A DNA stretch of 64,000 bases, from NCBI GenBank assembly GCA_963668625.2, contig CAXXKA010000008.1, positions 576,001 to 640,000 of the forward strand, read 5' to 3'. Source of the stretch: an uncultured candidate division Zixibacteria bacterium. GTDB taxonomy: Bacteria; Zixibacteria; MSB-5A5; UBA10806; 4484-95. The position numbers are program-made. Of this stretch, positions 1-3,000 are shown in pieces; within the stretch, counting starts at the first letter, position 1, and each line of letters starts with the position of its first letter.

Positions 1-3000
1 ATAAAAAGTCCTTATGCTGATACGGTTAGCTTATCGTGTTTAATGATTCGGCCGGTGACGGGTTTGTTTTATGTATATATGATGTCCGCTAACTTTAAAT
101 CGAAGGAGGTTACAGGCTTTATAGATTCGTTACCGGTAATTCGGCTTATTGAAAATCAATAAGGGAGGTTTATTAATGGCAGTGAAAAGAAAAGCTGTTA
201 CCGTACGCAGACCCAAAGGTGGGGGATTTCGGATACCCAAATCGTTGCTCGAGGAGTTCACCAGAGCGCCTATTATCGATTTGGGGGGCGCTGCGGGTTA
301 CTGGCCTATCGCACCGGCTCTATTGAAACGAGCCGATTTTTTCAAGAAGCTGGCAACCGATAAGCAGTTTTTGAAAGAATTCGATGTCATGATCGTACCC
401 AAGGCGCGTTAGTAACTACTCAGGGGGAGAGAGGTGGCTCTACTGCGCCTCTCCCCTTTTTAAGCGAAACAAATTCCATATAAGGCGGATATTATCATGG
501 CCGTAAAATTCGAGCATCTCGATTTTTTACGAAACATAGCATTCATGCTGACCTACAAATGCTTTATCGCTTGCCCTCATTGCCTGTTCGATTCCGGCCC
601 GGCACGCAAAGAACAGATGCGTCTGGCTGATGTTTCCGAGTGGCTTACCGGGGCGGCGGCTTACCGGGATGGTCATATCGGCGGGCTGGCGCTGACAGGC
701 GGCGAGCCATTTGCCAGCCTCGATTTGCTGGAGAAAGTATCACGATGGGGCGCCCGGCTGGGATTCGTGCAGTCGGTTGTTACCAATGGCTACTGGGCCG
801 GCAGTTACCTCAAGGCTTTGGCCACGCTCAAACGATTTCCGGCAATCAAGCTCATAGCATTAAGCACCGATGAGTACCATCAGAAATTCATCCCGATAGA
901 GAATATCGAGAACGCCATACGCGCTGCTGACGAGTTGGGGCGAATCCATAGCCTGTCGGTTTGCACCGATAATTACGATAACCCGGCGTACAAGCGTACT
1001 ATCGATAAGCTTCAGCAAATAACCGAGCCGGAAAATATCCGTACGACGATTACCTTTCCTGTCGGTCGGGCGGAGCGAAAGGTTGATGGTTACCAGTATC
1101 GTATGAGCGCCGAGCCGGTGGTTTCGGTATGCTCGATGGCCAGCTCGCCGGTAATTTTCCCCGATGGCCGGGTGACCGGTTGTATCGGGCCGGTCGCAGT
1201 CAAGCTCGAGGGCAACCATCCGCTTGCCTGGGGCAGCCTTCGCGAAAACACATTAGCGGAGATACTGGATCGCGCCGAGTGTGACCCGGTGTTTCATGCT
1301 CTTCGCATATGGGGCCCGCATAAGCTGGTGTCGATCATCCGCGAGGCCGGCAAAGATAGCTGGCTGCCCAAAGAGTATCAAGCAGGCAGTATTTGCGATG
1401 TGTGTTACCGTCTGTTTAGGGATGACCGCATACTTGGTTTTTTGGATGATCTCCGCCGGGATGAGCAGTTCACGGAGAAGGTAGCCTACGGGCGGGTGTA
1501 CTATCTCGATGAGCCGCGGATGGCGGAGATGCTGGGAGTGGGAGTGTGAATTAACTTCTCAAGAACGCTTCGATTTTATCGATCGTACTTTCGAAATCAT
1601 CTTTGATAGAATGTTCCCAGACGACTAATACTTGCCATCCGAGTGAACGTAACTGTCTATTCTTTCTTTGATCTCTCGCTCTGTTCTGGGTGATTTTCTC
1701 TCGCCAAAAGTCGCTCGACAGTTTAGGTTCCCATCTGGGGTATTGCCAGCCATGCCAAAAGTCACTATGAATAAATACGGCTTTTTTCTCCGATGGCTTT
1801 GCTATGTCCGGTGTGCCTGGTACTCTTTTATAGTGTTTTTGGAAATATATTTTACGTTTCCTTAATGCGGAGAAAACCATTAGCTCGATCTTGCTATTCT
1901 TAGGCCGAACACGGCTCATCAAATAGCTACGTTGCTTTTTAGTGAGGCGATCTGTCATAAAACAACATATATGAGTTCGCCAAAAATTAAAAGTCAATTC
2001 TTAATCAGTTTTTAAAAGCGTTATTAATCGCCCTTTTATATTGTGATATACCGTTGTTAATTTTTCTTTTGCTTCGGATTGCAACAATGCTGTATGCATC
2101 AAAGCATCTCGGATTGGTTTATATTGTTTAGAATCATTTGTAAGCCCAATACTAGGGCCACCCTTATGTGGATCAATTGTACTAGCAAGATTATCCATAT
2201 CAAGATAACTCAACTTGCTTTTGTTTTGTCTTAATTCAATATTTACATTACCACGTAATTTATTATTTTTTTCCTTTTCTAATAATTCTTCGAATCTTTT
2301 TTCTATTGGGGCAGGGAGGAGTATTTTTTCATTCTCAATATATAATCTTAATAGATTTTCAGATATAAAACAATCAGCATAAGAGCTAAAATTAAACGTT
2401 GCATCAGAATGTAGCAAATTTACCCAATCTTTTATCTTTTTTGCACTTTTAGTATCCGCTGATAAGGCGTACTCATCAGCCACTGCATTAAACAATTCTT
2501 CAGACTTGCGATCTTTTGGTGTAATGCTTGGATTGTCTGGATCGCCATCCTTTTTATGATCCCTTCTAAGTTTATCCCACTGATCAAATATTATTGCAAT
2601 TACTTCTGATTTAAAAATCTCCAAGAAACTATTAAATTTAGGATCATCTGATACTATATTTTCTCTACTACTAGTAAATCTATCCTTTTCATCATCCAAT
2701 TCATTATAATGAATTTGTCCATATAGGTAACTCTCAACAACCCGAGCTGTTGGTATATGTTTCAATATATCTTTTTCTCTTAATCTTCCATTAACGAATA
2801 AATCTACACTTACTTTATGGTCAGTTGATCTTATCTTTAGATCTTTAGGTTTTTCAACTGAGGCTATAAATCCCTTAATTGGATGTTTAACCTTTAGCTC
2901 AATAATTTTTACTTTAATATTCTTTAGTCTGGTTCTTATAAAAGGATCATCTAAATTATTTAAATTCCATACGAACTCGGTTTTTGTTGCTAAATCATCT

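Follow-up and report, generated by a model that had tools for sequence, protein, structure and literature searches.

EpeE (YydG) of Bacillus subtilis, which acts on the peptide EpeX (YydF) encoded just upstream, is the only enzyme to have been characterised structurally in its branch of the radical S-adenosylmethionine (SAM) enzymes that modify peptides, and its mechanism hinges on one Cys. This residue, C223, is also treated as the H-atom donor of EpeE in the accessible part of PMC5682303. According to the sections available of PMC13012085, a C223S variant slows quenching of the C-alpha radical, and the accessible part of PMC8326336 describes that mutation of C223 results in breakage of the peptide. 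Here, we describe a two-gene cassette at the start of the window, i.e. the whole stretch of 64,000 nucleotides (nt) that was analysed, positions 576001-640000 of contig CAXXKA010000008.1 of an uncultured candidate division Zixibacteria bacterium. The cassette encodes a protein of 78 amino acids (aa) and an EpeE-like radical SAM (rSAM) enzyme of 350 aa in which Ile occupies the position of the donor Cys. We assign a probability of about 0.5 to the reading that this is a mobile two-gene cassette, the enzyme of which modifies the partner protein close to the Gly41 loop by a chemistry other than EpeE-type epimerization; the role of the small protein as substrate, the modified site and the chemical outcome are what we infer in this reading.

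An initial annotation of the DNA had described a small open reading frame (ORF) of 78 aa led by a strong ribosome-binding site, a hairpin and an rSAM gene. We confirmed this layout and its coordinates, and it recurs as a conserved unit across loci. The features of the cassette in the window are as follows:

161-168, plus strand: ribosome-binding site AAGGGAGG, 7 nt 5' of the ATG of the small ORF, by direct reading of the sequence
176..412, plus strand: small-protein gene (ATG at 176, stop codon at 410-412, 78 aa)
233..238, plus strand: codons for the conserved I-P motif (Ile20-Pro21) of the small protein
296..310, plus strand: codons for Gly41-Tyr-Trp-Pro-Ile45 of the small protein, a near-invariant Gly followed by aliphatic/Pro residues; candidate modification site
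422..461, plus strand: intercistronic hairpin (422-458), the 3' side of which enters TTTTT at 457-461
497..1549, plus strand: EpeE/YydG-like rSAM gene of the 'CIGP' clade (350 aa)
560..583, plus strand: codons for C22-x3-C26-x-H28-C29, the radical SAM cluster motif
962..964, plus strand: codon for C156 of the enzyme, an invariant Cys that by alignment is not a ligand and is absent from EpeE
1130..1132, plus strand: codon for C212, predicted ligand of the auxiliary cluster
1181..1192, plus strand: codons for C229-I230-G231-P232; C229 corresponds to EpeE C222, and I230 is at the position of the donor C223
1394..1405, plus strand: codons for C300-D-V-C303 (in SICDVC), predicted ligands of the auxiliary cluster

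The two genes belong together. We analysed 54 loci (L003-L056) with an rSAM enzyme 41-55% identical to that in the window, using an iterative profile search that started from the small protein of the window and was run against ORFs in all six frames. In 50 of the 54 loci, in bacteria as well as in archaea, a member of the small-ORF family was detected upstream of the rSAM gene and in the same orientation, with a distance to the start of the enzyme match of mostly 75-190 nt and at most ~530 nt. Co-conservation of the upstream peptide with rSAM homologues had been set beforehand as a test of the initial annotation, and its outcome favours the annotation, with counts far beyond chance. Among the four loci without a profile match, L034 and L050 contain ORFs that look alike by eye, and L042 and L045 contain a different small ORF in front of an rSAM of the 'CM' type. 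Moreover, five of five other genomes searched whole contain one small gene and one enzyme gene each, ~90-140 nt apart, and the genome of the window has a single match to the small-protein profile, i.e. the one in the window, together with one rSAM of the CIGP clade. Finally, the type of peptide motif tracks the clades of the rSAM tree, with 13 label changes compared with 29.3 in shuffles and none of 200 shuffles as low, in a quick tree and with a signal that shared ancestry inflates.

In Pfam, the enzyme matched the generic Radical_SAM domain and, below threshold, SPASM, and nothing else. The top NCBIfam model was that for YydG (TIGR04078; 75.4 bits, E 5.1e-21, model positions 4-305 of 309), and the score is below the curated cut-off of 300 bits. 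The sole strong sequence matches in the Protein Data Bank (PDB) were those to EpeE (8ai1-8ai6; E ~1e-12). The enzyme had been proposed to follow EpeE motif by motif; this is visible in the alignment to the PDB sequence, in which the blocks CxxxCxHC, TGGE.F, NG[YF]W, DEYH, VG.A, DG and SIC.VC are common to both proteins, and it extends to the fold. In an AlphaFold2 model based on 34 homologues (predicted local distance difference test (pLDDT) 89.1, predicted template modelling score (pTM) 0.87), the top Foldseek matches were nine EpeE chains from 8ai1-8ai6 with template modelling (TM) scores of 0.71-0.79 and E 7e-16 to 4e-15, followed by BlsE with a TM of 0.52. To number EpeE, 24 was subtracted from the chain number, a conversion that was checked with the deposited C223A and D210A variants. 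C229 of the enzyme aligns with EpeE C222, I230 with the donor C223, Ser217 with D210, and C300 and C303 with C290 and C293, while C212 is one column off C206. From this alignment and the accessible part of PMC13012085, the four EpeE Cys are taken to be the ligands of one auxiliary [4Fe-4S] cluster in a T-SPASM domain, and C212, C229, C300 and C303 are predicted to be their counterparts.

A word-indexed protein search with 90% clustering yielded 354 homologues at E<=0.001, and we counted conservation in the best 120 of these, which are 46-100% identical to the enzyme over almost the full length. In these 120 proteins, C22, C26, H28, C29, W100, D125, H128, C156, R191, C212, P218, C229, G231, C300 and C303 are invariant, and these include all seven cluster Cys. 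At position 230, 119 of them have Ile and one has Val, and Cys never occurs there; the CIGP motif is near-invariant. Thus, the observation that the enzyme keeps four auxiliary Cys with Ile at the donor position holds for the clade. The invariant C156 is at the end of a predicted strand (150-157) in the model of the enzyme; EpeE has V-T-K there, with Thr at the position of C156. In the seven more distantly related enzymes of L057-L063 (24-29% identical), the C-C pair is retained and C156 is missing.

Four loci encode another rSAM paralogue beside the 'CI' enzyme, and all four of these paralogues contain C156. The paralogues in the Methanotrichaceae loci L037 (5071-6132) and L050 (3003-4088) are downstream of the CI-type gene and of the CC type, in which the donor Cys is kept. 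Those in the deltaproteobacterial and Nitrospiraceae loci L042 (2919-4016) and L045 (2920-4041) are upstream, of the CM type and preceded by a different conserved ORF of 71-78 aa. Because the CC-type paralogues also carry C156, this residue is not simply a transplanted replacement of C223. Moreover, the side-by-side occurrence of CC- and CI-type enzymes in L037 and L050 suggests that they do different jobs. The genome of the window encodes a second YydG-like rSAM of 315 aa at a distance of 216 kb (L085 1426-2373; contig positions 792951-793898), the N-terminal part of which matches TIGR04078 at 55 bits and in which C-Q occupies the donor position and I-C-I the position of C156. We rejected it as a part of the system because a 240-aa GNAT-like ORF, and no related small ORF, is upstream. 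Membership of the enzyme in a defence system such as prokaryotic viperin was likewise rejected, since the PADLOC pVip models (E 1e-8 to 1e-6) cover just residues 14-130, i.e. the generic rSAM core.

The start of the small protein at ATG 176 is supported by a 62%-identical 78-aa homologue (P0123) that opens with the same MAVKRK. The small protein had no matches in Pfam, NCBIfam and PADLOC, and a look-up in the ESM Atlas gave nothing usable; because the NCBIfam library should include a YydF model, the lack of a match there agrees with the initial annotation, in which the peptide was described as unlike YydF. A word-based protein search identified two relatives only, of 62% and 76% identity. When a profile built from 41 members was searched against 1.84 billion protein cluster representatives (clustered at 50% identity), 195 representatives were found at E<=1e-3 and 70 at E<=1e-10. 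The best 150 of the 195 are all 58-174 aa long and consist of one or two domains, and none is fused to a larger protein. We conclude that the small ORF represents a genuine protein family without a name.

Residue conservation in this family was counted in 141 single-domain representatives. Pro21 is present in all 141 and Gly41 in 140, and they are accompanied by Ile20 (120/141), Phe28 (128/141), Pro75 (112/141) and Lys or Arg at position 76 (126/141). Arg33 is found in 121 of the 141, and the protein in the window has Ile at this position. Position 42 is Ile, Leu or Val in 130 and Pro44 is present in 97 of the representatives; no Cys is conserved. The central motif occurs in two main versions, G-[LIY]-W-P-[VI] and G-I-P-[VI]-P, and in additional members both the Trp and the second Pro are missing. 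Trp43 is present in just 48 of the 141, and aromatic residues are missing around the Gly in, e.g., the small proteins of L040, L049, L052 and L053, while the enzymes in these loci keep every invariant residue. Thus, the Trp-centred crosslink in GGAAGYWP that had been proposed is not supported as a chemistry common to the family.

Small-protein domains occur in more than one copy in several loci. The Methanoperedens locus L029 has two tandem small-protein genes (3402-3611 and 3709-3918; 69 aa each) before one rSAM gene. Fused two-domain small proteins of 120-134 aa, in which the second domain is without the I-P motif, are encoded in the Bacteroidota loci L032, L035, L036, L038, L039, L043, L044, L046 and L048, and the Anaerolineae locus L041 encodes a two-domain protein of 139 aa with the I-P motif in both domains. 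We also considered an AbrB/MazE-like identity of the small protein, its I-P...G spacing being what we took to be reminiscent of such domains, and rejected it on testing: 41 members had no Pfam match naming such a domain at E<=1, PF04014 matched nothing in the genome of the window at E<=0.001, and hhalign gave a probability of 0.2% against six AbrB-type proteins from relatives, which are a small and skewed reference set.

Between the two genes, the minimum free energy fold of positions 408-500 (-25 kcal/mol, 93 nt) contains the hairpin at 422-458 with 10 outer and 4 inner pairs. A simple terminator scan did not flag this hairpin, the z-score of the 93-nt stretch is just -1.06, and the window's best uninterrupted stem is 8 bp. 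Taken singly, the hairpin in the window is not remarkable. Across the family, an uninterrupted stem of at least 10 bp is present within 100 nt 3' of the small ORF in 23 of 51 loci compared with 37 of 975 random control windows from the same loci, and the intergenic sequence itself is not conserved whereas the strong stem is. In peptide-maturase operons, a hairpin behind the precursor gene is a well-known means of obtaining more precursor than enzyme. In the window, the hairpin is likely a partial terminator or a stabiliser that favours the small transcript.

The G+C content of the cassette is 54-57%, while that of the adjoining DNA is 35-41% on one side and 33% on the other, and that of the window ~45%. 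A tRNA-Glu gene with an integrase fragment is 10 kb from the cassette. Both cassette genes were sought without success in 40 genomes related to that of the host, most of them at least 90% complete, of which 2 belong to the genus of the host, 7 to its family, 14 to its order and 17 to its class. Carriers belong to Chloroflexota, Thermodesulfobacteriota, Nitrospirota, Bacteroidota, Chlorobiota and Acidobacteriota among the bacteria and, among the archaea, to Bathyarchaeia, an Asgard archaeon, Methanotrichaceae, Methanoperedens and Archaeoglobus, and in the quick tree of the rSAM enzymes, archaea and bacteria of many phyla are interleaved. In total, the G+C contrast, the tRNA/integrase setting, the absence from the 40 relatives and the interleaved tree indicate that the pair moves by horizontal transfer as a two-gene unit. 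Because the unit moves across many phyla in this way, we suggest that it confers a portable function that is useful in anoxic conditions. No close family member was found on plasmid or viral records. Phage carriage was rejected since eight matches on viral contigs are generic rSAM cores of 23-36% identity and partial length; plasmid carriage was rejected since eight plasmid matches are distant YydG-like genes of 22-27% identity, one of which, from a B. cereus plasmid, proved uninformative on inspection.

The setting of the cassette in the window is a mosaic island in which degraded sequence and a restriction-modification unit adjoin the cassette. The restriction-modification unit (1551-4770, minus strand; G+C ~33% compared with ~45% for the window) abuts the cassette and consists of a Vsr-type mismatch endonuclease (1551-1997, minus strand), a 549-aa HATPase_c_3 protein that matches PADLOC models for type II restriction endonucleases (2001-3650) and a C5 cytosine methyltransferase (3643-4770). 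On the other side, ~10 kb upstream (locus L002 4850-5489), a 144-aa integrase fragment comes after tRNA-Glu(CTC) and is encoded on the opposite strand, and the final 1.3 kb before the cassette (L002 13870-15150) has short broken frames only, one of which, judged by eye, resembles the N-terminus of an IS-family transposase. The tRNA-Glu gene, the integrase fragment and the broken frames suggest a decayed integrated element. Also upstream of the window, L002 7137-13869 encodes two large secreted-looking proteins of 1491 aa and 682 aa, and the latter has ~7 tandem Cys-rich repeats of ~50 residues each (GACC.NDGMDCT.GVTETDCFD...).

In an all-against-all comparison of the flanking ORFs in the 54 loci, the pair alone was recurrent; the other clusters were antisense rSAM frames or came from closely related Bacteroidota genomes. 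Pfam matches for 82 flanking ORFs were to housekeeping, regulatory and mobile-element genes and showed no pattern. A C1 peptidase, a PatG-like protein and an Rce1-like protein are each neighbours in a single locus and are not shared. Just upstream of the small-protein gene, an extra gene is present in the Methanoperedens locus L029 (2639-3331) and the Syntrophobacteraceae locus L053 (2427-3560); the encoded proteins share 45% identity (E 7e-51), both contain EPAH/EPVH motifs that recur and neither matches Pfam, and the gene was not found in the genome of the window with this query. In L015 (1231-2688), L025 (1950-3377), L026 (2572-3234), L028 (2574-3236) and L051 (1970-3421), sigma-54 activators, response regulators or a histidine kinase precede the cassette. 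The regulator genes in these few loci may reflect regulated expression, which is not a general feature of the family.

We find that a dedicated enzyme-substrate pair fits best, because the genes are adjacent and one-to-one, are transferred together, and show duplications of the small gene and an expression architecture that favours it, and because the only characterised relative of the enzyme acts on a peptide encoded just upstream. In the mechanism that we propose, the first gene would give rise to a protein of ~75 residues, and the hairpin would probably let this protein exceed the enzyme. The enzyme would function as an EpeE-like rSAM enzyme with two [4Fe-4S] clusters and most likely would bind its partner directly, because a separate recognition protein is not among the conserved genes. 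On cleavage of SAM, it would take an H atom from the backbone or a side chain of the partner in the Gly41-aliphatic-(Trp)-Pro loop, which from its conservation is the likely site of modification, with I20-P21 as a second candidate. Because the clade is without the quenching thiol and the C223 mutant of EpeE breaks the peptide, the substrate radical would probably meet a different fate from that in EpeE: it may be oxidised to a dehydro residue via the auxiliary cluster, form a new bond or cleave the backbone. The product would probably remain intracellular because no exporter or protease is conserved. Since the enzyme resembles a peptide epimerase and yet is without the Cys that completes the reaction, it probably performs an undescribed modification.

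A more specific form of this proposal, which we regard as distinctly unlikely, is that CIGP enzymes are natural analogues of the EpeE C223 mutant, in which H abstraction at Gly41 or at the next aliphatic residue is followed by oxidation via the auxiliary cluster, resulting in anaerobic backbone scission, or in which a persistent glycyl-type radical is left on the 75-residue protein. Scission of this kind may give an amidated N-terminal fragment and an alpha-keto-acyl or glyoxylyl C-terminal fragment. If true, scission or a persistent radical would be an rSAM protein-processing reaction that is undescribed for any RiPP (peptide that is synthesised by ribosomes and then modified post-translationally) or protein and is common to many anaerobic bacteria and archaea.

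Several observations weigh against modification of the small protein by non-epimerizing chemistry. The chemistry is wholly inferential. Conservation extends along the entire small protein, which does not consist of a leader and a variable core; this fits a small folded or binding protein, which could be a partner of the enzyme rather than its substrate. The stand-alone model of the small protein is poor (pLDDT 69.7, pTM 0.35) and has helices only, and the region of Gly41 is among its less confident parts, with block-mean pLDDT values of 55 for residues 31-40 and 71 for residues 41-50. A T-rich tail accompanies the hairpin in just 12 of the 51 loci, and for this reason the hairpin in many family members may stabilise the transcript or be a site of processing instead of terminating transcription. 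Moreover, a protease, a transporter, an RRE (RiPP recognition element) or a PqqD-like protein, genes of the kind that had been proposed for inspection near the cassette, is not shared among the flanking ORFs of the 54 loci. Because none of the protease, transporter or RRE is conserved, the cassette is not a typical RiPP cluster. Thus, of the label 'RiPP system' in the initial annotation, the conserved pair of a small gene and an rSAM gene is retained, but neither conserved genes for processing, export and recognition nor a division into leader and core accompany it.

Binding of the two proteins, for which a co-fold had been suggested, received weak support from the predicted complex. The score (interaction prediction score from aligned errors, ipSAE) was 0.58 (runs 0.65, 0.55 and 0.58) and was 0.00 for all three controls, and the runs agreed in at least 45% of contacts with a pLDDT of the partner of at least 49. 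Of 80 solved complexes, 58 attain the pass mark of this prediction, as do 2 of 110 mismatched pairs, and scores of 0.60 or lower were obtained for just 7 of the 80 solved complexes as well as for both passing mismatches. The prediction gave no interface and thus does not point to the modified residue.

The loss of the donor Cys is itself open to another interpretation, in which the enzyme is still a peptide epimerase that takes the C-alpha H from an aliphatic residue, e.g. at position 42, and has it returned by C156 or a solvent-exchangeable group to give one D-residue. We consider this a serious, if unlikely, possibility. In both sequence and fold, the enzyme is nearest to EpeE, an epimerase of Val/Ile; position 42 is predominantly Ile, Leu or Val, and the C156 that all 120 homologues share at the end of a barrel strand in the model could be a relocated H-donor. 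In the accessible part of PMC13012085, EpeE C223S still yields some epimerized product, with reduced activity, and therefore loss of the thiol is insufficient alone to exclude epimerization; similarly, the donor Cys is placed elsewhere in proteusin epimerases according to the available sections of PMC8326336. What makes us doubt that the enzyme is an epimerase is that C156 also occurs in the tandem paralogues L037b and L050b, which retain the C-C pair, so that it is no simple replacement of C223, that the strictness of Ile/Val at the donor position within a near-invariant CIGP motif points to a selected new role, and that two epimerases seem redundant where CC- and CI-type enzymes adjoin. The initial annotation had reasoned from the missing donor Cys directly to a crosslink, which overlooks both the invariant C156 and the breakage of the peptide that the accessible part of PMC8326336 describes for C223 mutation. 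A crosslink of the Trp in G-x-W-P, which upon attack by the substrate radical would form a C-C bond or a small cyclophane (-2 Da), appears quite improbable to us as the chemistry of the family. The protein in the window and its clade carry G-[LIY]-W-P-[VI], in which W-P-[VI] fits a three-residue cyclophane motif, many members of the 'GIPVP' type have a Trp three residues before the Gly, and the auxiliary cluster is retained, as it is in crosslinking SPASM/twitch enzymes. Against this stand the scarcity of Trp43 and the small proteins without an aromatic residue near the Gly, and the enzyme is unrelated beyond the rSAM core to known cyclophane or Lys-Trp enzymes; streptide and related crosslinks are treated in the accessible part of PMC8326336. 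A Trp crosslink could thus be confined to the sub-clade of the window rather than being family-wide.

Alternatively, the small protein could be a regulator, an antitoxin-like partner or a chaperone, and the enzyme could act on another cellular molecule. The conservation of the small protein over its full length, its basic N-terminus and the lack of export and processing genes in the cassette are in line with this idea, as is the location of the cassette in the window in a mosaic island beside a restriction-modification system. Still, we regard it as very doubtful: the tests for an AbrB/MazE relationship, by Pfam in 41 members, by PF04014 in the genome of the window and by hhalign against the small and skewed reference set, gave no support, PADLOC matches the generic rSAM core only, and no other conserved gene could supply a substrate. 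Moreover, tandem and fused copies of the small gene and a hairpin that favours it are better explained by a substrate that is consumed.

The identification of a large sister clade of EpeE, in which the donor Cys is replaced by Ile with all else kept and which is associated one-to-one with an unnamed conserved small protein, provides a natural experiment on an EpeE-type active site without a thiol to quench the substrate radical. A new post-translational modification may emerge from this clade. We did not find a description of the CIGP enzymes or the small-protein family in the literature searched, and homologues without C223 may still be mentioned in the original reports on EpeE (Nat Chem 2017 and Nat Chem Biol 2024).

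Compared with known systems, the cassette shares with glycyl-radical proteins and their activases (e.g. GrcA/PflA), by analogy, a small protein with an invariant Gly beside an rSAM enzyme that would abstract a C-alpha H. The enzyme matches the activase models TIGR02494 (E 0.02) and TIGR02495 (E 2.7e-4) just marginally and in the generic core only. The glycyl-radical signature is R-V-x-G-[FWY], and in this form it is absent around Gly41 of the small protein. SCIFF/ranthipeptide cassettes consist of a small peptide and one rSAM maturase, are widespread in anaerobes and have no dedicated genes for processing and export; a full SPASM enzyme installs thioether bonds in their Cys-rich peptides. By this description, the cassette resembles them as a minimal unit of peptide and rSAM enzyme in anaerobes, but the peptide and the enzyme are unrelated to theirs, the partner being without conserved Cys and the enzyme being EpeE-like with one auxiliary cluster.

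The proteusin epimerases PoyD and OspD, as described in the accessible part of PMC8326336, abstract the C-alpha H from aliphatic residues and depend on a critical Cys, and they lack an auxiliary cluster and bear an RRE at the C-terminus. C-alpha H abstraction on aliphatic residues of a ribosomal peptide and a critical Cys in the enzyme are the points at which they can be set beside the cassette enzyme, but they are absent among the sequence and fold matches of the latter.

The closest system remains EpeE/EpeX. The two enzymes are alike in fold (TM 0.71-0.79), in the motifs CX3CxHC, NG[FY]W, DEYH, VG.A, DG and SIC.VC and in the four auxiliary Cys, and in both systems the small gene is directly upstream of the enzyme gene and there is no separate RRE. 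They differ in that sequence identity is ~20%, C223 is replaced by Ile, D210 aligns with Ser and C156 is an extra invariant residue in the CIGP clade. Unlike YydF/EpeX, to which it is unrelated, the partner here is longer and is conserved throughout, and the B. subtilis operon reportedly carries protease and ABC transporter genes, none of which is conserved beside the cassette. In total, we conclude that the enzyme is of the EpeE type by fold and cluster ligands, yet it departs from this type in scoring below the cut-off of the model, in lacking the donor Cys and in having no operon of the YydF type. Moreover, anaerobic bacteria and archaea, and not Bacillota, harbour the cassette family.

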